Both the position numbers and the translations under genes were made by a program. The notes below the pieces were generated by a model, which was not told the origin of the DNA, did no database searches, and was given only the letters and a program-made list of their open reading frames with translations. 64,000 bases of DNA from Lytechinus pictus. Lineage: Eukaryota. This document shows, piece after piece, positions 24,752-40,124 of the stretch; within the stretch, counting starts at the first letter, position 1; the number at the start of each line of letters is the position of its first letter. The stretch lies in the NCBI RefSeq assembly GCF_037042905.1, contig NC_087250.1, positions 8,682,001-8,746,000 of the forward strand, given 5' to 3'.

Positions 24752-26323
24752 CTGTTTTGTTTCGGAATGAAAGACAGTCATCAAAATTTACAAATGTACA
24801 TCAAAATAATGACGGCCCTATAGAAGATAGTTTCCGATGTTTCGTATAGGCCTATCGCAGTTCCATCAAATAATAGTTTTCCGTTTTCTCACTGTTTCGG
24901 AGGAAAATTTAGGGTATGACCTACATTCGGAATTGGAGACAGAGTTATAAATAAATAATTGACCTTGAAATTTATATTGTAAGGTTTGAACATCATGAGA
25001 ATGACACTGTCAGACGTTGAAGTAACGTCGTCATGATGCAGGTGCAAATTTTTCTAAGACTTTGATGAAACGTTATGAGAATAGCTGCAGCTAGCCTAGA
25101 CCACGTTCAACGTTGAAAGATGTAAATAATTGTTGACTTGATGATGCATGCGCGTGCACTTCTATTGATGATTCAAAGTTGTACCAACGATTTATTTATT
25201 ATCTCCGTATGGTAGAAAACTAGTGAAAATTTTGAAGGAGAAATAATTACGCTATATAGCTAAAAATGACCTACGTTTCTTGAAAATGACTGAAAATAAC
25301 CATAGTCCCATGCACGCACAATCAACAAGCACCCTCAAAGAGAAGTGAACGTGTAGAATAACGGAAAGTACGTTCAATGGATAGTACTCATTGAAAATAA
25401 ACCGAGTATTATACGGCAAATGAGTGGTTCTATGACATCTGCTCCGGCGACAATATTGCTCCGATGGAAAATCAATCTGCACGTTATTAAGCCAAACATA
25501 TAGGCTAAGCTAACCTCTAAAACAAAACAAACCCTAATCCTTATTATTTACATAGTTCTGAACCAAAATGTATATATCTGTCGTGTTGGGATCGGCAATT
25601 ATAATTTAGAAGGGAAGCGTAATGAAGAAACTTCGGAGAAAGTGATACAGTTCAAAATCACAGGGTATTTAATCATCAGTATTCAGCCACAGTTCGAAGT
25701 ACATGAAGGTTCAGATAAAACAGGAGACGGTGAATATAATTATTTCAAAGTATAAGATTAAATTCTGAAGTTAGACTAATATTGGATGGACGTCTAAGTC
25801 TTGAAGTCGGTCAATCTATATGGATGAGTGTGGGTCTAGTATTATACTTTATATCTTTTCTGATAATCAAGAAGTCTTATTTATATCATTAGTTTTGGGG
25901 TGTAACAATTTAAGGTGGGAGTGATCTCTAAACTTGATCTGATTGGTCTACAGGTAACTGTCTATCAAACTTTATATGGTAGAAGGGATGTGGTGATGCT
26001 CTGTGCAAGTGACTGGGGCTGGAAGTGTGGGTCATACGTCTTAGAACTTTTGCTCCTTGAAGTTAGCTGACGTCACTGAGGGTTGGTCTTTTACGCTCAA
26101 AGTTTAGGAGTTAAATGGTAATGGGGGTTTAGGAGTTCTTAGATGACATTGGGGGAGTTTGTAAACAAGTGAAGGTGAATGACTGAAAGGATAACAGGAA
26201 GTTAAATCTATACTACATAACATAACAATCCTAAATCCGACCCAATATGCCCTCTTAGATATTAAAACCGGAGCAAATGACGCTGAAGAAAATGTCGTGT
26301 CACCGGTAAGGTTTTCCACTTAC

Positions 26324-26472
26324 GGTCCAACCGCCCCCATCTGTCTCCATGTCACAATACACATTGGTATACTTCCCAGGGTATATGGCATATACACCAC
26401 TGACGTTCGCCCCACGACCCTGGATGTCCGCGCAGTCAACTGGTTTGCCAGGTGATGGACTTGTTTTCTCAT
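26324..26472 (-). CDS. Fibrinogen-related domain protein, first FReD exon
   Basis: Reads PVDCADIQGRGANVSGVYAIYP...VYCDMETDGGGWT followed by a GTAAGT donor (phase 0). The acceptor position is uncertain. Confidence 0.88.
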
Positions 26473-27663
26473 CTTGAAAAAGGTAAGTTAAAAGATATCC
26501 AAACACAGCTGCTCAAAATAGTGCTTTTAAAATCATACAAAATCGAATGAAATCGCAATCATTGACCATATAATACTGAATAAGACACGAACTGACAATC
26601 ATTTCATTCGTCTCCGCGATTTATGTTCTTTTTCCCAAGGGGGCAACATAATATAAATTTTCAATCAGCGTTGCCAGGTCCAAACTGAAGAAAATCCCAG
26701 AAGACACTCGAAAAATCCCCAAATTGGACCATCAATCCCCAAATTTTTCAAATCACAATCATTTCTGAAAAAGTGAGGATATTTATCATGGTTATTGCCC
26801 AAAACAAGTTAATATTTCTTTGTTTGTTCACATCATATACATAGCAGATTTTTTTAAATATTATTTTTACTTCTTAGGTTTCGATTTCGATGCAAAGTAC
26901 ATTGGCAACACGCACTACCATTGTATCGTACAACCATCTAAGTTCATACAGTGCCGGCCGCAGGAAACGTCACGCCCGAGCACGCAAACACCCTAGGGGG
27001 CTTTTGCGTCTAACCGAGGGTATTCAAGGGGAGCCCCCTAGGGTGTTTAGCCGCGCCCGCAGTTTCCTGCGTGCTATATAATATTGGCCGTGCCCGCACT
27101 TATCCTCGGGTACCCTAGGGTACGTACATTGCATTATGTATACATGTGCATGTACATCGGTTGAATTGCGCTGGTGTACATTCTATGATCTACAGTAGAT
27201 CGTACCCCTGTTTAATGAAAAATAACGAATCTTAGTGCTTTTCATCAACACCTTCAAAAATCCCCAAAATGCATGAAAAATCCCCAAATTTATTTGAATC
27301 ACCAAATAATTTTTTCCATTCCCAAAGGCTTCTCAAAATCCCCAAATGGCAACACTTTTTTTTAATGAGGATCAGGGAGATCGCAAGGGCTCCCTCCCTT
27401 CTCACTTTGAAGTTAAGGCGGTTTATCCACTTTTAATTCCGTGGGTTTGTCTAGATTTTATGCATGTGATCTTTAATAATTTGCTGACATAAGACATCAT
27501 GGACATAAATGTGAGTAGGTGGAGACTTGACATGACGCTATTCAGACTGCTGGTTCGTCGCCGTTTTAAATAATAAAACTGCTGCTTCAATTCTCTCCCG
27601 TGCTGGCAAGGGGAGAATTCTATATTTCAGGTATGTGTTGCTTTTACATATTAAGATTTTCTA

Positions 27664-27907
27664 CACTGCAAAAACTCCGGTGTTGATTTAACACCAGCCC
27701 GGAATCTATATATGTCCACACCAGAGAAGTGTTAAACAACACCAGTTACGTTTTGGTCTAACACCAGAAAAGGTGTTTTATACAACACCAATTCGTATTA
27801 AAACAGCATCGGTTTGATTCCAAACTGGTGTTGTTTCAATACTTCTCTGGTGTGGACATATATAGATTCCGGGCTGGTGTTACACCAAAACCGGAGTTTT
27901 TGCAGTG
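27664..27907. mobile_element. CACTG palindromic MITE
   Basis: CACTG...CAGTG termini with a TA TSD. Confidence 0.9.
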
Positions 27908-29094
27908 TATGAAGACAGCAATGGGCCCGGTAGGAGATAAAAGCATCCCTAGTAGTAGCACCCTTTTGGGTGTAATCTTGCACCCTAAAGTGAAATAAGG
28001 ATGTGGAAACGCACCTGCTTGTTAATGTAGTTTGCACCCCAATGGTGCAACAGTGCACCTTCTAGGCTGAATAATATGTACTATGTCAAAGGGGGTTCCA
28101 ATTTTGTATCTTCTTTAAAGGGTTAATTATAATTACATGTATTCAGACCCGTTTTGTGCTGGGATTATGCCAACTCCTACACTCTCATAACAAATCAGTC
28201 AGGATGAATAGTTAATATGGTCAGTTTGGTGCAACAGGTATTCTAGTCACATTTGACTAATTTTTTTGTCGTATTTTACTCAAACAGAGTTACTTCTGAC
28301 TAAAATATACGTCAGAAAGCGACGAGACATATGAGCTGCACCCAGCTGACTACTGATCTAGTCAGTTTGACTGATTTGATTTGAGAATGCAATGTTTTCC
28401 CCCAATGTGTTTACCTCCTTGGCTAAAAAGGGGAATGAATGCCACCTGAGTTGATTTAGGAATCACGCAAGAAGTAGTTCCCTTTACTTCGAGAGGCTTT
28501 TACAGGAGTTATTGTCAATAAAATTGGGTTGTAATCGTGACTTTCTCGGCAATTATTGTGCAGGTGAAAAGGGGCGAATAAAATATTCTTTTCCCCAGTA
28601 GTCACGCAAATTTCCTTCAAACAACCGTTCGTACTCCGAAGATTGATATATTAACCACGCTAATTTTCAATTAGTGTTTTTATCACTCTTCAAATACATG
28701 CTTTGGGTACTTGACATTTCTGGAGGTAAAGTTAAAGAAAATGAGAATAGATTTTATCTTCACAACACTCTTAAAAAAAGGTCTGCGCAATATTGGGTAA
28801 AATGGGAACATGCATGCTGGTTTGGTAAAAAAAGATATTTTGCAATATTTTGTAAATTTTACGCAATGTTGCGTTCAAGTAGCCCAATCAATATGGGGTA
28901 AAAAATACCCAGCAAACATGCATGTTCCCTTTCTTCCTAATATTAGGTAAAATTTTACTCAGTGTTTTCAGAGTGAATCTAAAGAAATGTATTGAAATGT
29001 TGATAAAGAATACAACATTACCTTTTTTGAAAAAAAGACCATGAACAACGCCAGCAAAAAACAGCAGGCCATAATGATACTAAAATTGACATGC

Positions 29095-29130
<36 letters not shown>

Positions 29131-29297
29131 GGAGAATGAAACCCTTGAAACCAGCTGAATCCATATGAAAGAGAAAAATCAAAGAAACATATTGTTGAAA
29201 GTTTGAGGAAGATTGAATTAATAATAAGAAAGTTATGAGCATTTGAATATTGAGATCACTAGTGCCATGTAGATCCTCCCATCGGCAATGCGACCAA

Positions 29298-31185
29298 GTA
29301 TAACCTTTCTCCCTCTGAAAGACAAGCTCTCCGTGAACTTAAAGAAAACAAGAATGTTATTATCAAACGAGCTGACAAAGGGTCAGCAGTGGTATTTCAA
29401 TCTAAACAGAACTATCTTTCTGAAGGCCATAGACAATTGAACACGGAGACATATAGGAAAACTGAGAGTGATCCTAACAAAGAGCATTTGAATCAAGTGA
29501 AAAAAGTAGTAAATGACATAAAGGTCCCAAAAGACATCAAGCAATTACTGATCCCTATCAAATCGGAATGCCCACAAATGTATTTTTTGCCCAAAATACA
29601 TAAATTGGGCAATCCAGGAAGACCGATTGTTTCCGGATGTTCTTGCCCTACTGTTCAAATATCTCGCTTTCTCGACACAGTATTGCGTCCATTGGTACAA
29701 CATACTAAGTCTTTCATACAAGACACAACACACTTTCTGAAACATATCTCCAAAATAAACTCAGAGGGCCCAATTCCTAATGGGATATTCTTGGTCTCAG
29801 CCGACGTCAAATCCCTGTATACCAACATTCCCCATGCAGATGGTATCCAAGCCTGTAAGAAAGCTCTTGAAAAACGGAGATCGAAAGATCCCCCTACTTG
29901 TGATATGGTTCGATTACTTGAACTAATTCTGAAGTTGAACAACTTTCAGTTTGCAGGGGAATTCTACATTCAGAACCAAGGAACGGCCATGGGCACTCCA
30001 GTTGCACCCTCTTATGCCAATATCTTTATGGCAGACTTAGAAGAGAAACTCCTCTCCTCAGTCTCACAACAGCCTTACAGATCATCCTGGTGTAGATACA
30101 TTGACGATATTAATTTTCTCTGGTCTGGAAACAGGGAGTCTCTTGACCAATTTATCCAAGCTGCCAATTCATTCCATCCAACAATCAAATTCACGTTTGA
30201 AACATCTAACTCTCAAGTTTCCTTCCTTGATGTTCTACTTTACATGAAAGAGAACGTTCTACAAACTTCTCTCTACTCCAAACCGACGGACACCCATGCT
30301 TATCTTCTTCCCGATTCATCTCACCCACACCATGTTTTCAATAGCATTCCTTATAGCCAGTCAATCCGAATAAGGCGCATTTGTTCCGAAGAAGCCAACT
30401 TTGAATCTAGTATCGCAGATCTGCAAGAACATCTCCAGAAACGTAATTACAATCCCCATTCAGTGAGCAAAGCCATCAACAAGGCTAAAGAAATCCCTCG
30501 GGATAACCTCTTACATTATAAGAAGAAAGACAAAACAATGAAGAGAACACCTCTTGTGCTCACCTATCACCCCAACCTGCGTAAAGTTGCCCAAATTGCT
30601 CGCAAACACATGGACATTCTTCATCAATCTGAAGTGACAAAGGAAATATTTCCAGAACCGCCCCTTATCGCATTTAGACGATGCCGCTCTCTTCAAGACT
30701 TATTAGTATCGTCCCGTGTTTCAGTCAACTCTGAAAACAATCAGAGTGAACACATGGGCTCATCCAAATGCGAAGCTAAGAAATGTTGTATCTGTCCATT
30801 CATGTTGAACACTAAATATTTCGTAAGCACAGTAACAGGAGAGAAATTCCCAATTACTCAGCAAATCAATTGCAAATCTTCATGGGTATTATATCTCATT
30901 ACTTGCAAACGCTGCAACAAACAGTATGTCGGGAAGACTACTAATACACTGTACACAAGAATGTGCAACACACGATCAGACATAAAGAAATATCACACGA
31001 GTAGACGCAAGGAAATCCCAATTGCTGCCCACTTCAGTTCTGATAATCATTCCACAGATGATATTCAAATTGTAGGAATAGAACTTATCAGAAAACAGCA
31101 TGAATCAATCATACTCAAACGAGAGTCATATTGGATTCTGAAACTTAAGACACTTGTACCAAACGGCATCAATGTAGAAGAATAG
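29298..31185 (+). CDS. Penelope-like retroelement ORF (5'-truncated): RT + Cys-rich linker + GIY-YIG endonuclease
   Basis: The frame is open from 29298 (YNLSPSERQALRELK...IIKRADKGSAVV). RT motifs LPKIHK, GRPIVS, DVKSLYTNIP, GTAMG and RYIDD. Linker C-x4-C-x2-C...C. GIY-YIG region VLYLITCKRCNKQYVGKT...R...E..WI..L.T..PNGIN. Confidence 0.93.
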
Positions 31186-31210
31186 ATATTTCTAATTAAC
31201 CTCAATCGTG

Positions 31211-32334
31211 GGTCACATTTGTTACATCAGTGTCACTAATTAAATGATTAAATTATTTTTAATACTTATTGTTATGTATTTGTTAGGTGATTTCTAGATG
31301 ACCCAAGCTTGAGAAGTGAGACTTTTGGTCATTACGCGAATTATCAACAATTTTATTTATAATCTTTACTCAATTTGATTTCAAAATTTATATCGTTTCA
31401 TAGAGATTTAATTTATATGCTTGTAAGAAACAATGTTTTCGTCATCATCCTCCAGCTTACGATATCTAATATCATGAATATTCATACTCATTGTGACATA
31501 AATTATATGCGCATTACCAATGCGCTTTGCGCTTTCATCACCTAGCAACCAATGTTTTCTTTTGCAATTTTTGCCACTTTCCTAAAGAACGAGATAGGAT
31601 ACGGTCATACTTAACTATCACAATAGTCTGTAATTACAGGTATGTCTTTTTGATTTATATCATTATTATTTTAATTGAATTAATTATTTATTATTCATTA
31701 ATTTATTTATCTGTTCATTCATTAATTTGTCATTATGGAATATATTCAACTTGGTGATAATTCATTGATGTGCATGGTCACATTTGTTACATCAGTGTCA
31801 CTAATTAAATGATTTTTTTAATACTTATTGTTATGTATTTGTTAGGTGCTTTCTAGATGACCCAAGCTTGAGAAGTGAGACTTTTGGTCATTACGCGAAT
31901 TATCAACAATTTTATTTATAATGTTTACTCGATTTGATTTCAAAAATTTATATCGTTTCATAGAGATTTGATTACTATGCTTGTAAGAAACAATGTTTTC
32001 GTCATCATCCTCCAGCTTACGATATCTAATATCATGAATATTCATACTCATTGTGACATAAATTTTATGCGCATTACCAATGCGCTTTGCGCTTTCACCA
32101 CCTAGCAACCAATGTTTTCTTTTTGCAATTTTTGCCACTTTCCTAAAGAACGAGATAGGATACGGTCATACTTAACTATCACAATAGTCTGTAATTACAG
32201 GTATGTCTTTTTCATTTATATCATTATTATTTTAATTGAATTAATTATTTATTATTCATTACTTTATTTATCTGTTCATTCATTAATTTGTCATTATGGA
32301 ATATATTCAACTTGGTGATAATTCATTGATGTGC
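31211..32334 (+). repeat. Two near-identical tandem 565-bp repeats in the PLE 3' region
   Basis: Units start GGTCACATTTGTTACATCAG at 31211 and 31776. Confidence 0.92.
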
Positions 32335-32375
32335 AAAACAAACTTGGATGTTGTATCTCCTTATATTTTTCAGAC

Positions 32376-32415
32376 GCTTCTGACGAAGTCTCAATTAAAA
32401 GACGAAAGCTAAAGC
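32376..32415 (+). ncRNA. Minimal type I hammerhead ribozyme in the PLE 3' terminal region
   Basis: GCUU-CUGACGA-A-GUCU(caauuaaa)AGAC-GAAA-GC-UA-AAGC: catalytic core, stem II, palindromic AGCU stem III and stem I GCUU/AAGC. Confidence 0.75.
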
Positions 32416-32518
32416 AAATAATGGTGTCCTGCGTCATCTGTTGAGTTGGCCTCGCCTCATCTCATTATGTTTAATATTCACAACTCAACAGCGATTGGTA
32501 GAAGTAAACTTATCATCA

Positions 32519-32554
<36 letters not shown>

Positions 32555-32596
32555 GAGATCAAGTGTATGGAGAGGGCCGTAGCAATACCCGTCTTC

Positions 32597-32630
32597 ATCA
32601 AGCTTTCGGGCAGATGCCCTTCATCAGGAT
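32597..32630 (-). ncRNA. Minimal type I hammerhead ribozyme (inverted copy)
   Basis: The minus strand reads AUC-CUGAUGA-A-GGGCA-UC-UGCCC-GAAA-GC-UU-GAU. Confidence 0.65.
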
Positions 32631-32665
32631 CTAAACCAATATATAAATTTTATATATTGGTTTAG

Positions 32666-32699
32666 ATCCTGATGAAGGGCATGTGCCCGAAAGCTTGAT
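32666..32699 (+). ncRNA. Minimal type I hammerhead ribozyme
   Basis: AUC-CUGAUGA-A-GGGCA-UG-UGCCC-GAAA-GC-UU-GAU, with a palindromic AAGCUU stem III. Confidence 0.65.
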
Positions 32700-33041
32700 G
32701 AAGACAGGTATTGACCTTGCTACGGCCCTCTCCATACACTTGATCTCGAATATAATTATGAAGGAGACCCGTACACGTACATCGCCAAGATTGATCACAC
32801 TTATATATACAAATGTGTAAAGTTATACATGTACAACAGCTTTGGCAACTCTTTTTATTTAAATATTGTAAAGAAATGGATGAAGAGAACAATGGTAGGC
32901 GTAGCTTAAATCAAGGTTCCCAGAGCTATCTACCCTTTGGAAAAATTGGTGATGCCGAAAAAATGTCTTTGCCGGGAATCGAACCCGGGCCCCCAGCTAT
33001 CTGACGGTCAATCGGATCGGGGTCGCCTTAGCCACTAACCC

Positions 33042-33113
33042 GTCTCTGTGGTCTAGTGGTTAAGGCACCGGCGTTCAAAGCTGGGGGCCCGGGTTCGATT
33101 CCCGGCAGAGACA
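33042..33113 (+). tRNA. tRNA-like gene, anticodon TCA (opal-suppressor type, short variable arm)
   Basis: Acceptor GTCTCTG/CAGAGAC, D stem GTCT/AGGC, anticodon stem CCGGC/GCTGG with loop GT-TCA-AA, variable GGGC, T arm CCGGG-TTCGATT-CCCGG. A and B boxes are intact and a T9 run follows immediately. Confidence 0.7.
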
Positions 33114-33436
33114 TTTTTTTTTCGGCATCACCAATTTTTCCAAAGGGTAGATAGCTCTGGGAACCTTGATTTAAGCTACGCCTACCATTGTTCTCTTCAT
33201 CCATTTCTTTACAATATTTAAATAAAAAGAGTTGCCAAAGCTGTTGTACATGTATAACTTTACACATTTGTATACGTTCCCCCTACGTGTACTGTATCAA
33301 AGCAATAGCTTTGATCCAGCTGAAGCATGGCGGCTTGTCATTGTTCGAAACCCACCTTCACCCGACAAAGGAAATTATAATTGGTATAGTGTCGAAAATT
33401 TGTCTATCGGATCGGGGTTGCCCTAGTCACTAACCC

Positions 33437-33508
33437 GTCTCTGTGGTCTAGTGGTTAAGGCACCGGCGTTCAAAGCTGGGGGCCCGGGTTCGATTCCCGG
33501 CAGAGACA
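33437..33508 (+). tRNA. Second identical tRNA-like gene, anticodon TCA
   Basis: Identical 72-nt sequence 395 bp downstream, followed by T6. Confidence 0.7.
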
Positions 33509-33604
33509 TTTTTTCGGCATCACCAATTTTTCCAAAGGGTAGATAGCTCTGGGAACCTTGATTTAAGCTACGCCTACCATTGTTCTCTTCATCCATTTCT
33601 TTAC

Positions 33605-33645
<41 letters not shown>

Positions 33646-36464
33646 AAGGGTGTGTGTGAGTGAGTGTATTTTTCTCCAATATAACACCCTAAGTCTGGGA
33701 CATCTTCTGCAAAGTAACTCATGTACTGATCGGGATTTTTCGCAATTGCAGATTCTGCAACGTTGTAAATCTATTGAACATGCAAGTCAATACACGTGAC
33801 ACCTGAGAGGTTTTTGTCAAAAGATTGTGAACTGGGACAGCAGATCGTCCTAAGATTGCGACCTGGCGAAAAATTGTAAAGAGTCCAGGACGGCACTGTT
33901 GTTTTGATTCACCTGTTTTCGATAAATGAACTGGCCAATAAAGATCAATGTTACACGCGTATTTTGTTTAATATACTGACCAGGAAGAGTGGTTCTTTCA
34001 TATTTGCAATTCATCGCAATTAAAACATTTGTGTTACGGAGCCCAGTTTTCGACTAAGCCTGCTTTTGACAATGGATTCTCTGCGTTTCAGAAGGCGTCT
34101 GCGTAGTGCTTGCGAAAACTCCATATTAACAGCAATTTCCTTACCGGTTTCACAAAATTTTCGTTGAACAGGTATAGACTTATTTCCAGGCTTTCCAAAA
34201 GACCGTGTGCCATCGACATGGTATTTGACCCTCTGATGTATTATCTTTTCACCCTGAACGACTGGTTGACAACTATCTTGACTTCCTCGTCCAGCAGATG
34301 TCCAACCTACAGATAATCCGATAGTAGTATGGTAAAGGGGTACGTTGCAAACAAAACTTGCAATCAATTGTTAGCCAAGTCGAAAATTGACGAGCCATTA
34401 TAGCATTAATATAGCGCTTATCACATCTTTATCAGCGGAGCGTTTCATAAAAGAACTTGTAGGACGTTTTATCCGACACGTCCGTTTTATCCGACAGTTA
34501 CCATAGTAACAGTGACATTTAGCTGATAAGTTGTCAGATATTGAAACTTTCTGGACAAAAAATTTGATGAAACGCTTCTCAGAAGTCTTTAAGCGCTCTG
34601 GAATGGCATATATTTAGTAAAACAAATATAATGAACAGTAAAATAAAAAAAAATAGGTGAGTATAAGATCTTTTTAATATTCTGATGATAAATAATTTAG
34701 ACCTTGGTGTTACTCTGTGCTAAAATCATGGGAAGCCAACGTTTCAAAATTTTGTTTACAGTGAATGCTTCTCATGTCTACCTCTTTACTAATTATTTAA
34801 TGGTGAAGACAATTGTCATATATCCTTCCCAGGCGGGTTAATAATGTTTTGGGAGTCAAATGAGCTAATACATTGAACCTCTACTGTTAGAGATATATGT
34901 AACAACTGGCTTTCCATAGTTTAACCACAGCTTAAAACCAGAGTTTAAATTAAACCCGACTCCAGATTACGCGCCTATGTGTTTATCACACCTGGAGTTC
35001 ACAATGTCTGGTCAATAAGATACATAATCCATTTTAAGAAGATTAAATGGCGCTAGTTGTTTTCAAGTCAGCATACAACAAATATATATATTTTTCATCG
35101 CGCTTCGTGGCTTTATTATTTTATCTACTGTCATACGCATTTTTTTCATAATTGCCTAAAGTGATTTGCACCTTTCAAAGTCTGAACATTAAAACAAAAT
35201 GTTCAGTCAGTGCTTCGCGTTCTCATTAGTGGATTGATGGAATATGAAAGCTTTTCATGAATTACTATTAACAGTCATCGAAATTTTTCTGTTGTGGTCT
35301 GCATATGAAATTATTTCAGCTCGCTTCTCGCGCTAGCATTATTGGATTAATCAAATATGTGCGTGTACGAACTTCATAAATTCCTTCAAACAGTCCTTAA
35401 AATAACATCTTTTCAGGCCTAAATATGACGAAATTTCAGCTCGCGCTTCGCGCACGCAAAATTTAATAAATGGGATACGTATCATGTTTGTTTTTACAAA
35501 AAGTTCTTAAATTTCCTGTATTTATGTTTATATTTAGATTTAAAAAATAGCCCGCACTTCCCGCTCGAATTATTTGAATGTGAGATATCGTTGCTCTTCA
35601 TAAATTCCTAAAAAGAGTCCTTAAAATGTAGATTTGTAGACATATATATGTAGACTTTTGAGATATATATCATTTTGAGATATATGTATTATTATACATT
35701 TTGGGATAGATGTATTATACAGCACACATAACACAATATGTCTACATACTTTCAAAAAATAGTTTGTAATAAAAATCTGCGTAAACTTAATTGATTTTAA
35801 TACATGTAGCTATTGGATAATCCTAATTAAACATTACCGATGTAAAACATTTTCTTTAAAGATATACCTATATTTAGTAAATTAATCCAAATATATGCAT
35901 GGTAATTGTAAAGCCATTATGTCTTTTACAACTAAACAACTAAATGGCCGAAAGCTTGCACTAATAAAAGTTAAAGAAATCCAGGCTACGTCTCTAGCTT
36001 CAATGCTTTTTGAGCTTCTTCGCCAATATATTACTCACTGAAGCACCCACGCAATGTTTAGGTCCTTGCTCATCACAATTATATATATATATATAACCTT
36101 TTTCCAAAGCATGAAAAAATGCCGAAACTTTCAGGATACATTCATTATTTAAACCATTCGGATATCTAATCGCAATGTTTATAGGACAAATGCTCAATGA
36201 CTCTTATAAAAAAAAAAATCGCCGAGAAAGTGCGCTAAGATATTTAAAATTTGAATAATTCAAATTTTCACAGGGAAGTGACGGTTGGAAAAAAGATATA
36301 ACGGTCTTTACACTTTTGTAGCATTTGTATTTTACTCGATTATACAGTTCACGTTATTGGAAAAAAAATATTGACCATTTCCCAAAACTAAAAACAGGGT
36401 TAAAAGTTGTGAGGAAAATATAACATGTCAGAATATTGACCACTTTAAACACTATGATTATATA

Positions 36465-36811
36465 ATAATTATAAATAGTATAATAATTACATTTATATAA
36501 CGCTTATTACAATGTGTCTCTAAGCGCTTTACATGTACATATCATTACCCCGGTCATCGGATCACGGCATGCCCGCATACAATGTATGCACTTTTCCACT
36601 CCCGGGGGAGCATTCTAACAAGAGTTCCAAGACTCAATTTCTAGGCATACTACATAGGCTTTCGCATCCTACCGGGTACCCATTGGCACCAGGGTGGAGA
36701 TTGGCAAAGTATGGATTGACGCCTTGCCAAGGACCTAAGTCGCGGTTGGATTCGAACACACGAGCCTCTGATTTCAAGGCGAGAGTCAGAACCGCTACAC
36801 CACGACGCTTC
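36465..36811 (-). mobile_element. tRNA-derived SINE with an L2-type tail
   Basis: The head has A/B boxes (TGGTGTAGCGG, GTTCGAATCC) and the core is GTCCTTGGCAAGGC...AATGGGTACCCG. The tail is AAAGCGCTTAGAGAC...AAGCGTTATATAAAT(TAT)n. A related fragment lies at ~41126-41268. Confidence 0.8.
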
Positions 36812-37201
36812 CACATGTGATGGTAAAATTGTCTAACTAGAAGATTAACAAGATCAGAAGATAGACCATTTTACCATCTTTGATGTATAGTATGAGTGTA
36901 TACAATCATGCGCTGTGGTTAAACAGCCTATCTGCACAAAAATAATCCCTCAAATAAGCACAACATTCTTCAGTTATTAGTGTTTCATATCCTTCTTCTT
37001 GCCCTATTGCTAGAGCGACATTGTAGGCCCCCTACCCGTCTCCTAGAAAAGCTCAAACCCCTAAACTACTCGTTTGTCTCAGAAGAGCGATTTTTGAGAC
37101 CGTTTCGAGGCCGTTTTACGGCCGACGGCTTACAGATGGTAAATCGGTCTAATTCAAAGATAGACCATTTTACCATCTCAGAGCAATGATTAATGATAAC
37201 C

Positions 37202-37465
37202 GCTGCGTTGGCTCAGTTGGTAGAGCGTCCGTCTCATAACCGGGAGGTCGGGGGTTCAAACCCCGGCCGCGCCAGACCAAAAGACGTTAAAAGATGGGAG
37301 TTTGTGCTACCCTGTTTGGCGTTCAACGATTAAAGGAATAGAGCCTCGTCGATCTGGCGCTGCACAGCGGCTGCCGGCCCCACGATCAATTGGGCAAAGC
37401 AAATTTTCGGAGTATTTCATTTCAAGTCTTTTTCGAACAATAAAATATTAATTTTCATTTTTTTA
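37202..37465 (+). mobile_element. tRNA-derived SINE (CAT-anticodon-like head)
   Basis: A box TGGCTCAGTTGG and B box GGTTCAAACC. The ~190-bp body is shared with the degraded copy at 11470-12167, and no terminator follows the tRNA part. Confidence 0.8.
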
Positions 37466-38499
37466 TTACAAAATCTCAATTTAGAAGGTTAAAAGCTTTA
37501 TGTAAAAAATACCTCCAAACGATAATTTCGACAATGGGATAACTCAAAGATAGAACGTTTTGTCATCAAATCTGAAGGAAAATACAATAAAAATACGAAG
37601 ATGGCGGAAATGATCATTATGGTTAGATTTTCTAGAAAAGAGTTTTTTTTTCTTGGAAAGAGTGCCATCACATTACCAGGAAAGTGCATCTACCTCAAAA
37701 AGGTCAATTTTCCGAGTAAGACCATTTTTATTTACATACTCTCTTTGTTCTGAAGCTGCTCCTTCCTATGTCATTCCAAAATCCAGAAAACAGACCGGTT
37801 TCAAGTCTTTTCAATCTCTTGCTCCCCCCCCCCCCCCCGTCTTTGGAACAAACTGCTCCATCTCTCCGAAATCTCTCTTCTCTTGACCTCTTCAAAAAAA
37901 CATCCCAAAGCACACTTATATACCATAAACCTTAACCATGTAACCATAAACCTCTTATGCCATCAACAGCGCTTTGTATCCTCTGGAAAAGGCGCTATAT
38001 AAATCCAATTATTATAAGTATTGATGATAATATGCGACGGTTAAAAGAAGGAATTCAGGGAACATACATGAAATGTCATAACTCACCCTTGTTAAAATAA
38101 ATGACTATCAGTACAAATCCGAAAATTCGCCTCAATCTATGACCAGCCATTGCATAAGAGCATAAGAGGTGTTAGGGTCGGCGTGTCGGAGCGTCAGATG
38201 ATGGAGAAAAACTTTTCACTGGAAGAACCATCTCGCCTAAATGTATATTTCATTACTTTTAACTGATGCGCACGTGCGTCGATCTACATGTAGTTGGCCT
38301 AAACGCATCGTTTATTGCTGACGTTTCCCATTTTCAAAACAGTAACTTGTTTTATTGCCTTGTTTTTTTCCTCATTAATTTTCAAGAAAGCGGGGGAAAC
38401 GATAAAGCTATGGGAGAGGGTGAAAGCGCGTGACTTCAGTGTTGATACTAGGTTTGTGTATGATACTGTGTATGTGTGTGTGTGCGTGCACGTATTCTT

Positions 38500-39177
38500 C
38501 CGTGTATTCCGTGAGAGTAAAAAAAAAAAATTAATTACTCCTCACAATTCCCAAATTTTAGGAAAAAATACGTTATGAATGCATAATCATTAGGCTATAT
38601 ATGACCGGAAAGAGAATTTCTCCCAAATAATTTGATACCATTTTTATGTGGTATGTTTTCATGCTTGGATAATCAGTAGGTATTCTTTGCCTTGATGTAT
38701 ATTTTAATTTGTGCCAAAGTAATGCGTGGCTGCAATAAATGAATCCAGAAGCAAAATATGTCAATAAACCTAAATGAGTTAGTAAACAATGTTTTGTGAA
38801 TCCATTTTCAATGAAATTAATTTGAAAATTGATACTAAAAATTGTGAATTAAACAATAAAAATGTTAATTCTTGAAAATATGTTTTGAAATACATGTAGA
38901 TTTCAATACAACCCTTTTATGATTATGACATCATTGACATCTGGATTCATTCATTGCAGTCATGCATTACTTTCAAATTAATTCAAATTTACATCACTGC
39001 AAAGAATACCTCACGGTCATCCAAGCGTTAACACATACCACATGAATATGGGATCAAATTATTAGGGAGAACATACTCGTTCGGGCCATGTATAATAATT
39101 ATGTGTCCATGACATATTTTTAATTAGATTGAGGATTTGTGAGGTGTCAAATTTTGTGTTTTACTCACACGGTGTAT
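38500..39177. mobile_element. Degenerate long-TIR foldback MITE (Tc1/mariner-like)
   Basis: ~38598-38767 is the diverged reverse complement of ~38922-39092. Outer ends CCGTGAGAGTAAA versus TTTACTCACACGG. Confidence 0.55.
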
Positions 39178-40124
39178 TTCTGAACCAGGAGGAATAAAGA
39201 TCTTTTACATGAGCGTGTAGGTAAACTACCTTCTGAGTGAATGTTACAAATATATTTCATGTCATGCTCCAGGAAGCAACGATAAAAGGTAAATTGTCAC
39301 TTTCTGTAAATCACAAGCCTAATATCGTGACTTTGACTCCATTTCACCGTAAGGAATTCCACATATGATTCTCATCATAAAAATGTTCAGAAGGCAAGTA
39401 AGAGGTACTTTCTTAAAGACAATACAATTTTTTGACTAAATTTCACAGATGAAAAAAAGGTCAAAGTTTGCTAAATTTTGATGTTTTACACATTTTTATC
39501 AATACAAAAATGATCAAATATGATAACATTTATTTTTGGCAAGAGTATTTTCAACAATATTCATCATTTCACGGTTCAATGAACAGTTAATGAAAAAAAT
39601 ATGTAATTTTCGAATACCATAGGCAAGTATTGTTTTATTTTGGGAACTGAAATTATCTTATAAACTTTTTTCCCCCTTATGTTCACGACCAATTAACATT
39701 TATATGGATGCACAAATGCAATTGCTTACTATGGATATCTGTCACAGACCGAGGGTCACAGATTTTCTTGGATATAGTTAATTTGATTTGATTTTTCATG
39801 AAAATTCCGATGTCTAATGCTTTGGTGAGCACACAAAATTCGAAAATTATGCAAATGAGAAGAAAGTTCAAGGCCTTGTCCCCACTCTGTGCCGTATTGA
39901 ATGATTATTATGGTGCACACGCCTCTTGAATTGGGGCATTGTGCCCCTCTGAAGCCACGTGCGAAGTTTATGATATGATAACAACATTAAACTGTAGCAC
40001 CCACACACCCACAGACAATCATATATGATTTTATACATGCGCACACGTTGGTATTTGTTTTAATAGCAAGTAAAATGCCTTTCTCGGGAACCGTGCTATC
40101 TGCAAACCATTAACTCGACTCAAA

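Follow-up and report, generated by a model that had tools for sequence, protein, structure and literature searches.

A repeated block at positions 32806-33604 of a 64,000-nt stretch of the Lytechinus pictus genome (the window: contig C6, positions 8682001-8746000, in an assembly of 811.7 Mb) is probably one insertion of a young, high-copy, non-autonomous retroposon, which carries a tRNA-like gene and is moved in trans by Penelope-like elements (PLEs) that target (TA)n tracts. In our reading the tRNA-like gene belongs to the element as a module, kept intact in the propagating lineages, and is not a decoding tRNA of the host; its lower divergence relative to the sequences that flank it suggests a role for the element. 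Coordinates below are window positions unless stated otherwise, and positions within the repeat unit are counted from base 1 of the tRNA, with a period of about 406. The block and its 3' border are composed as follows.

32806..32998, minus strand: inverted, 5'-truncated copy of the unit (unit 38-231), with the 3' half of the tRNA only, its 3' end facing left into TATATA
32997..33604, plus strand: direct copy of about 1.5 units (unit 362-406, one complete unit and the next from 1 to about 169), ending ...CATTTCTTTAC into (TA)n
33042..33113, plus strand: copy 1 of the tRNA-like gene, with anticodon TCA and T9 directly behind it (ARAGORN, Rfam, sequence)
33437..33508, plus strand: copy 2 of the tRNA-like gene, the same in sequence as copy 1, with T6 directly behind it (ARAGORN, Rfam, sequence)
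33605..33631: (TA)n tract that borders the repeat on its 3' side and passes into (TG)n (sequence)

Insertion anatomy of the repeat

The direct repeats within the block are spaced 395/392 bp apart, and its inverted arms (32806-32963 and 33117-33274) are 158 nt long and 100% complementary. An earlier description of this DNA, the initial annotation, had placed direct and inverted copies of one unit beside a PLE, and the repeat arms, together with a neighbouring open reading frame (ORF) containing RVT_1 and GIY-YIG domains, bear this out; its unit length of 395 bp is true of the window copy, which is shortened, whereas the genomic period is usually 403-408 bp.

The ends of other genomic copies were compared in two samples: 30 loci fetched with a 181-nt query, which contain 104 distinct tRNA copies and are biased by that query (sample 1; its end counts leave out one duplicate locus and ten blocks cut at locus ends), and 36 dispersed copies selected solely by an exact 27-nt pattern of tRNA bases (sample 2). 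The 3' ends are fixed. Of the 35 terminal blocks in sample 1, 12 end at BLAST unit coordinate 181 and 19 at 223-231 (31 together), the remaining four ending at 112, 166, 171 and 184; in sample 2, 28 of 30 end at 181 or 223-231 and the other two at 132 and 166, while six more of the 36 copies continue into a further unit. Pooled, 59 of the 65 terminal blocks stop at one of two sites, at both of which a CTTTAC motif leads into (TA)n. Read from the sequence, the actual ends are ...CATTTCTTTAC (unit 169) and ...CTTTACACATTTG (about unit 226); beyond each, TA-rich unit sequence merges into a (TA)n tract, and most copies have a (TA)n flank.

The 5' ends are scattered, from unit 38 to 373 in sample 1, and lie within 10 nt of the first tRNA base in 0/34 cases in sample 1 and 2/22 in sample 2; the ends of unit copies do not match the tRNA borders. 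Truncation can be extreme, leaving 25-28 bp (L042, L052), and other solitary copies exceed one unit: L006 runs from 167 to 406 and on to 231, L003 comprises about 4.7 units and L012 about 5. All close inverted pairs that were seen are ordered (-,+), that is, head-to-head with their 3' ends outward. Fixed 3' ends, ragged 5' ends and outward pairs together are expected of target-primed reverse transcription (TPRT) from both sides of a break; transposons with terminal repeats, long terminal repeat (LTR) elements and plain satellite growth do not predict such ends. The unit thus displays the features of PLE-type insertions: a 3' anchor, 5' truncation, partial tandems, head-to-head pairs and a microsatellite target.

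A cluster of 5' ends is present at unit 281-285 (window positions ~33323-33327), with 5/22 ends in sample 2 and ends at 285, 291 and 297 in sample 1, the junction partners differing; it could be a transcript start, a stop of reverse transcription or a microhomology site.

These ends also bear on an unlikely alternative, a tRNA-derived short interspersed element (SINE), in which RNA polymerase III (Pol III) would transcribe from the tRNA head through the body (from 73 to either ~169 or ~226) into a (TA)n tail, the RNA being copied by a long interspersed element (LINE). The order of tRNA, body of ~100-150 nt and simple-repeat tail fits a SINE, as do the intact A and B boxes and the combination of fixed 3' ends with truncated 5' ends. 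However, the 5' ends almost never fall at the tRNA start, copies extend through 175 nt of upstream sequence and through entire additional units, the tRNA is directly followed by a T6 run (T9 in window copy 1) and by a further T5, and head-to-head pairs and arrays of at least 38 units are untypical of SINEs. A LINE-like tail was not found on the unit, though no LINE search was made, and 30 PLE loci show no similarity to it. The tRNA was taken by the initial annotation not to be a SINE head, and the lack of a pile-up of 5' ends at its start, with a terminator directly behind it, upholds that view.

A TRIM (terminal-repeat retrotransposon in miniature) of the Helenus type is far less probable still. 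Helenus includes families with tRNA-like LTRs, tandem arrays and transposon-borne 'tRNA genes' called as suppressors, pteriomorph bivalves being among the hosts (PMC10886601, in part). Against such an origin, the unit has no fixed 5' end, no target duplications of 4-5 bp and (TA)n flanks; no TG...CA ends, no primer-binding site (PBS) and no polypurine tract (PPT) were seen by eye; and the longest solitary copies have a terminal redundancy of only ~65 bp, with the tRNA outside it. The biv-TRIM of PMC6934838 is a different element.

Structure and class of the tRNA-like gene

ARAGORN reports two tRNA genes with anticodon tca on the plus strand, and the Rfam tRNA model (RF00005) matches both at 60.9 bits (gathering score 29, E 9.8e-11) over model positions 1-71 of 71, so that the genes fit the full tRNA model with four paired stems. 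The two 72-nt copies are identical. By inspection, the acceptor stem has 7 bp, the D stem 4 bp, the anticodon stem 5 bp (one of them G-U) and the T stem 5 bp; the anticodon loop is GTTCAAA, the variable loop has 4 nt, the discriminator is A, and the A and B boxes are intact. Oligo-T follows directly: T9 (33114-33122) after copy 1 and T6 (33509-33514) after copy 2, with a second T5 also present. The pair of cloverleaves is, along with the perfect inverted arms, far beyond chance, and the two identical UCA cloverleaves with terminators that had been read by eye in the initial annotation are confirmed by both programs.

A selenocysteine tRNA (tRNA-Sec) has a long variable arm, an extended acceptor/T helix (9/4 or 8/5) and about 90 nt. 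The window gene is rejected as a tRNA-Sec, as it had been before, by its 72 nt, 7-bp acceptor stem, 5-bp T stem and 4-nt variable loop, which make it an ordinary class I tRNA in shape; the 'SeC' label given by ARAGORN mirrors the anticodon alone. With tRNA-Sec and with engineered or natural opal suppressor tRNAs the gene has the UCA anticodon in common, and it differs from them in its length, its 7/5 arrangement, its variable loop and a G at position 32, which is atypical of tRNAs.

A single minimum-free-energy fold of the whole unit, a model that is not used as evidence here, pairs the D and T regions of the tRNA with the 35 nt upstream (33007-33041) in place of a cloverleaf; these 35 nt may be what is left of a partial copy of the tRNA in inverted orientation.

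Copy number, arrays and other organisms

The number of copies was estimated with a pattern of 27 fixed tRNA bases flanking a free 7-nt loop, the reversed pattern serving as a control. The pattern has 1,771 matches in the 812-Mb genome (1099 on the plus strand, 672 on the minus strand) and the control has 0. In the first 100 of the 1,771 matches, the loop is GTTCAAA in 92; the other eight are GTTCATA, GTTCTTA, GTTCTAA, GTTCAAT and GATCAAA (four, at a single locus). By BLAST, unit copies occur on many contigs at 96-100% identity. As many as 64/104 tRNA copies in sample 1 and 15/36 in sample 2 are identical to that of the window, so the family is too young for a covariation test. A practical consequence is that the family contributes at least 1,771 high-scoring 'suppressor' or 'SeC' calls to a tRNA annotation of this genome, which should be masked as repeats.

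Besides dispersed copies, there are arrays of at least 38 units with a period of 406 (for example, C2:8866144-8881199) and a spacing of 403-408 bp, in which units are 97.5-99.5% identical within an array and 95.2-97.4% between arrays. Short tandem non-coding units that are also dispersed, in a genome with PLEs, are what is found in retrozymes. Such long, homogeneous arrays, with units more alike within than between them, could also be read as a satellite or a tandem cluster of tRNA pseudogenes, spreading at the DNA level by unequal exchange, segmental duplication or circles and without reverse transcription, and two loci (L006 and L008) do resemble one insertion duplicated along with its flanks. 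We consider this reading improbable as an account of the family, a little more so than a SINE, given the dozens of dispersed copies with two fixed 3' ends, scattered 5' ends, TA flanks and outward inverted pairs.

The unit is present in sequencing runs of four organisms. Contigs of three organisms other than that of the window keep UCA, with no variant inside the tRNA, and a 434-nt contig of organism B spans the unit with zero differences over 33042-33323.

Divergence and origin of the tRNA part

The tRNA has diverged less than its flanks. In the 36 dispersed copies of sample 2, measured against a single reference unit and related to one another, mismatches occupy 29/1590 free positions of the tRNA (1.8%), 142/3860 positions of the tail (3.7%) and 219/3966 upstream positions (5.5%); copy by copy, divergence of the tRNA is below that of the tail in 24, above it in 10 and the same in 1 (Wilcoxon p 1.8e-4). 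Likewise, the mean minor-allele frequency in the 104 query-biased copies of sample 1 is 0.007 in the tRNA, 0.011 downstream and 0.035 upstream, and variants at 10% or more in RNA reads number 1 in the 72-nt tRNA, 5 in 33114-33230 and 32 in 33252-33427. The anticodon loop is not singled out: its mismatches, 3/252 (1.2%), make it no better kept than the free tRNA positions as a whole, among which it is included. The conservation of TCA that the initial annotation had proposed as a check on the family is borne out by the frequency of the triplet among the first 100 matches and not by any preference for the loop over other tRNA positions. In our reading, a tRNA that has diverged less than its flanks, without such a preference, points to a role for the element and not to decoding. 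We read these figures to mean that single copies decay freely, whereas the propagating lineages have held the tRNA nearly unchanged while their flanks drifted; the tRNA probably matters to the element, and its Pol III-type gene, being less diverged than the flanks, may serve as a promoter or processing signal, as was suggested at the outset, although copies do not end at its borders.

The same figures weigh on the proposal that the repeat is a mobile cassette supplying a working opal (UGA)-decoding tRNA, for a PLE or for general read-through. The high-scoring cloverleaf with intact boxes and terminator, the prevalence of UCA, its retention in other organisms' contigs and the lower divergence of the tRNA all speak for this proposal. 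On the other side stand the atypical G32, an anticodon loop no better kept than its surroundings, family members with TCC, TCG and TCT, a copy number of at least 1,771 for a gene that would be a suppressor, an identity of at most 68% to the three host tRNAs compared, a shape that excludes tRNA-Sec, a neighbouring PLE ORF without TGA, and TGA as the rarest stop among those PLE matches that have any. Opal decoding by the UCA tRNA is unlikely; a cassette working in this manner has very little probability, and the same slight chance is given to the extreme case of the favoured reading in which the element RNA is, besides its other roles, matured, charged and able to read UGA.

Three anticodon variants are known in the family: TCC (L068), TCG (L072) and TCT. 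TCA may have arisen from TCG by CpG decay or from a glycine TCC in one step; the direction cannot be read because L072 and L068 are both diverged. Among host tRNAs, identity by hand count is 49/72 for Gly-TCC and 44/72 for Glu-CTC, with Pro-TGG also compared, and lies mainly in the parts that form the A and B boxes, the D loop and T arm; in the acceptor and anticodon stems the sequence is different but the pairs are kept. A recent host parent was not found among these three isotypes, which share the T arm and are the ones sampled. At C12:26783068-26828507 (L063, L114) there is a dense cluster of tRNA-Pro(TGG) type with ~30 Pro-type T arms, interspersed with six variants that have the loop TTTCGTT and are called Arg tcg by ARAGORN.

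Relationship to Penelope-like elements

The PLE that precedes the repeat in the window has an ORF (29263-31185) with RVT_1 followed, towards the C-terminus, by a GIY-YIG domain at residues 541-630 of 640, and no in-frame stop, TGA included, as had been noted initially. Naiad PLEs carry an N-terminal endonuclease (PMC8557442, in part). The position of GIY-YIG makes the window PLE a canonical element with a C-terminal endonuclease and not a Naiad; a suggested link to the Naiads, for which in-frame UGA decoded as selenocysteine had been invoked, is thus contradicted by the neighbour, both in its domain order and in its stop-free ORF.

The comparison was extended to 30 PLE loci of three families, and to 72 PLE matches for stop counts. 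PLE insertions are known to be complex, tandem or inverted, and biased towards microsatellites, (TA)n in the case of Naiads (PMC8557442, in part). The family of the window PLE (PLE A) behaves accordingly: L032/L033, L034 and L036 are paired head to head or are partial copies, their 3' ends pointing outward into (TA)n, and they share a tandem duplication of ~565 bp in the 3' region; a second family, ~51% identical in protein to the window PLE, likewise ends in (TA)n. PLE insertions, with their pseudo-LTRs, tandem or inverted arrangements and microsatellite targets (PMC8557442, in part), have the insertion anatomy and the (TA)n target in common with the unit, as checked for PLE A; the unit differs from PLEs in having no ORF and no sequence in common with the sampled elements. 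Pieces of the unit occur at 5/30 PLE loci, each time as a separate insertion in the adjoining (TA)n, so that the association between unit and PLE is one of target and mechanism and not of descent. The idea of a non-autonomous PLE derivative is accordingly supported as regards tandem and head-to-head copies, (TA)n targets and 5' truncation, and not as regards sequence shared with the sampled PLEs.

Among the 72 matches, 57 contain no stop at all, and the other 15 carry 7 TGA, 11 TAG and 19 TAA. There is no excess of TGA in these matches, the Naiads themselves not having been searched for want of a query. An autonomous PLE that shares the unit and has in-frame TGA, which the initial annotation had recommended looking for, did not emerge from the 30 loci or the 72 matches.

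The most abundant family among the matches (L055-L060) is ~42% identical to the window PLE and has stop-free ORFs of up to 909 aa; in all six loci an internal (TA)n lies ~175 bp past the ORF match and is followed by the same sequence.

Proposed mechanism and points against it

The RNA through which the family spreads would be sense for the tRNA and would include the flanks as well. Reverse transcription may be primed on nicked (TA)n DNA at one of the two TA-rich sites after CTTTAC, which sit 97 and ~154 nt downstream of the tRNA, and would extend a variable distance, often past one unit; the latter suggests that the template is multimeric or circular. Head-to-head pairs would result where both sides of a break serve as primers. 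The enzyme would most likely come, in trans, from (TA)n-targeting PLEs of the same genome, to judge from the like anatomy of their insertions.

A more specific version of this scheme, which we put forward tentatively, is that of a 'tRNA retrozyme', in which the tRNA fold replaces the hammerhead ribozyme as the RNA handle of a Penelope-dependent parasite. The handle might be a processing site for RNase P and RNase Z, a tag for export or stability, or a structure that the telomerase-related reverse transcriptase of PLEs recognises. This would explain an intact tRNA amid drifting flanks.

Several observations weigh against retroposition by PLEs, or against a function of the tRNA part in it. No sequence common to the unit and the window PLE or the 30 PLE loci was found by BLAST, three families being sampled and other PLE clades not; since no PLE partner is identified, it is the insertion anatomy that argues for PLE dependence. 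The tRNA promoter cannot make the proposed template, because the T6 to T9 run would stop Pol III. Arrays could grow by unequal crossing-over, the identities within and between arrays fitting either route. Changes of the tRNA in single copies mostly break stems; a recurrent G69T (4/36 copies) breaks a pair, a recurrent A68G (4 copies) retains U4-G68, and a compensatory double change was not seen in the stems of the 36 copies, whose lower tRNA divergence is, moreover, a comparison of related copies with one reference unit.

The RNA data neither support nor contradict a template RNA. In one raw RNA-seq run (cDNA, organism A), of a kind unsuited to capturing tRNAs, 1,946 of 12,895,792 records lie on the unit, a low coverage that extends equally in both orientations over its whole length; in this run read starts and ends do not pile up anywhere, the tRNA borders included, and the reads would fit background or intronic transcription, or carried-over DNA. 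Joints that go back from one unit to another, and inverted joints, are present in the RNA reads; both are also expected from the arrangement of the DNA, and the former occur in DNA contigs of tandem arrays.

At 33213, 95 RNA reads pass from the first 3' site of the unit through a few TA into a sequence starting CAGTGCG..., and the reverse form is present in organism C. The second sequence looks like another repeat that is often within the same TA tracts; it presumably resembles the terminal repeats of Tc1-type elements.

Comparison with known systems

Tandem repeats have been proposed as non-autonomous PLE derivatives (10.64898/2026.07.22.740005 and PMC7229834, each in part), and the closest of them to the unit are the animal non-LTR retrozymes, which are tandem repeats with type I hammerheads. 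Their unit is of similar size, the mussel repeats having ~350-390 bp (PMC7229834, in part), and they have tandem and dispersed copies, coexisting autonomous PLEs and multi-unit insertions that suggest a multimeric or circular template, all as in the present family. The unit instead carries a complete tRNA-type gene with its own terminator, and it contains neither a CUGANGA...GAAA core on either strand nor a hammerhead match in Rfam at E<=1. In 10.64898/2026.07.22.740005, with 0 occurrences of 'tRNA', there is no mention of a tRNA-like gene in retrozyme repeats; nor is there one in the 12 of the 19 occurrences of 'tRNA' in PMC7229834 that were examined, which concern tRNA ligase or tRNA processing.

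What the tRNA-derived SINEs have in common with the unit is a tRNA-like module that contains A and B boxes, a body of short length, a tail of simple repeats and truncation at the 5' end; the unit differs in its internal tRNA, the terminator directly after it, 5' ends away from the first tRNA base, and tandem and inverted units. TRIMp3 elements (Cassandra, Helenus and Ajax; PMC10886601, in part) are, like the unit, non-autonomous retroelements other than SINEs that carry a small-RNA module and form tandem arrays, and their modules are likewise called as tRNA genes, 'suppressor' included, by gene finders. They are LTR elements with PBS, PPT and target-site duplications, whereas the unit has TPRT-like ends in (TA)n, and the tRNA-like parts of Helenus mostly fail to fold as tRNAs (the same source, in part), whereas the tRNA of the unit folds perfectly.

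The non-autonomous PLE partners described so far are hammerhead-bearing retrozymes, and modules from small-RNA genes are known in SINEs, which depend on LINEs, and in TRIMp3, which depends on LTR elements. If the proposed reading is right, a tandem retroposon bearing a tRNA gene extends Pol III gene capture to PLEs and offers a tractable case of what a PLE reverse transcriptase needs in its template. No published account of a tRNA gene in a PLE-type repeat was found in literature searches, which covered neither Repbase nor Dfam, where a deposited consensus may exist; a search for 'Penelope-like' with 'tRNA-like' or 'polymerase III' likewise found no paper that combines them.

Other features of the window

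The repeat lies within a longer composite. The stretch 29098-33631 is one TA microsatellite that has gathered the PLE, two PLE tail fragments and the tRNA repeat independently; the features upstream of the repeat are the following.

29098..29126: (TA)n tract on the 5' side of the PLE insertion (sequence)
29127..32521, plus strand: PLE family 'A', 3' end ...ATCACAC abutting (TA)n; other copies are 98.9-99.8% identical
31555-31774 / 32116-32335, plus strand: 3' tandem duplication of ~561 bp in PLE A (repeat search)
32380..32409, plus strand: motif like a hammerhead core, CUGACGA...GAAA, in the 3' tail of the PLE (by eye; no Rfam match at E<=1)
32522..32552: (TA)n that separates the PLE from the insertion after it (sequence)
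32553..32750: palindrome of two head-to-head, strongly 5'-truncated 3' tails of the second PLE family (inverted repeats)
32669-32694, plus strand, with a mirror on the minus strand: CUGAUGA...GAAA core in the second-family PLE tails (by eye)
32760..32800, plus strand: short piece of the 3' tail of another PLE variant, with TA repeats at its end; in L052 the same 38-40 nt stand before (TA)n, downstream of the PLE

The tandem duplication of ~561-566 bp is kept in all PLE A copies compared (L032-L036, L039). The palindrome arm ends in ...TTGACCTTGCTACGGCCCTCTCCATACACTTGATCTCGAA, which is the 3' end of PLE loci L045 and L050 and is followed there by (TA)n.

An Rfam scan at E<=1 over 26000-40000 returned no hammerhead, only tRNAs and sub-threshold matches of miRNA models to long hairpins. 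Of the hammerheads that the initial annotation had placed near the repeat, what stands are the two CUGANGA...GAAA cores visible by eye, both within PLE tails.

A third tRNA-like sequence, at 37201-37273 on the plus strand, is called Met (cat) by ARAGORN and scores 35 bits in Rfam, where the gathering score is 29; it, too, may be a tRNA-like sequence carried by a repeat. The long hairpin at 27667-27905, which a plant miRNA-precursor model matches at 81.8 bits against a gathering score of 200, is probably a foldback repeat.

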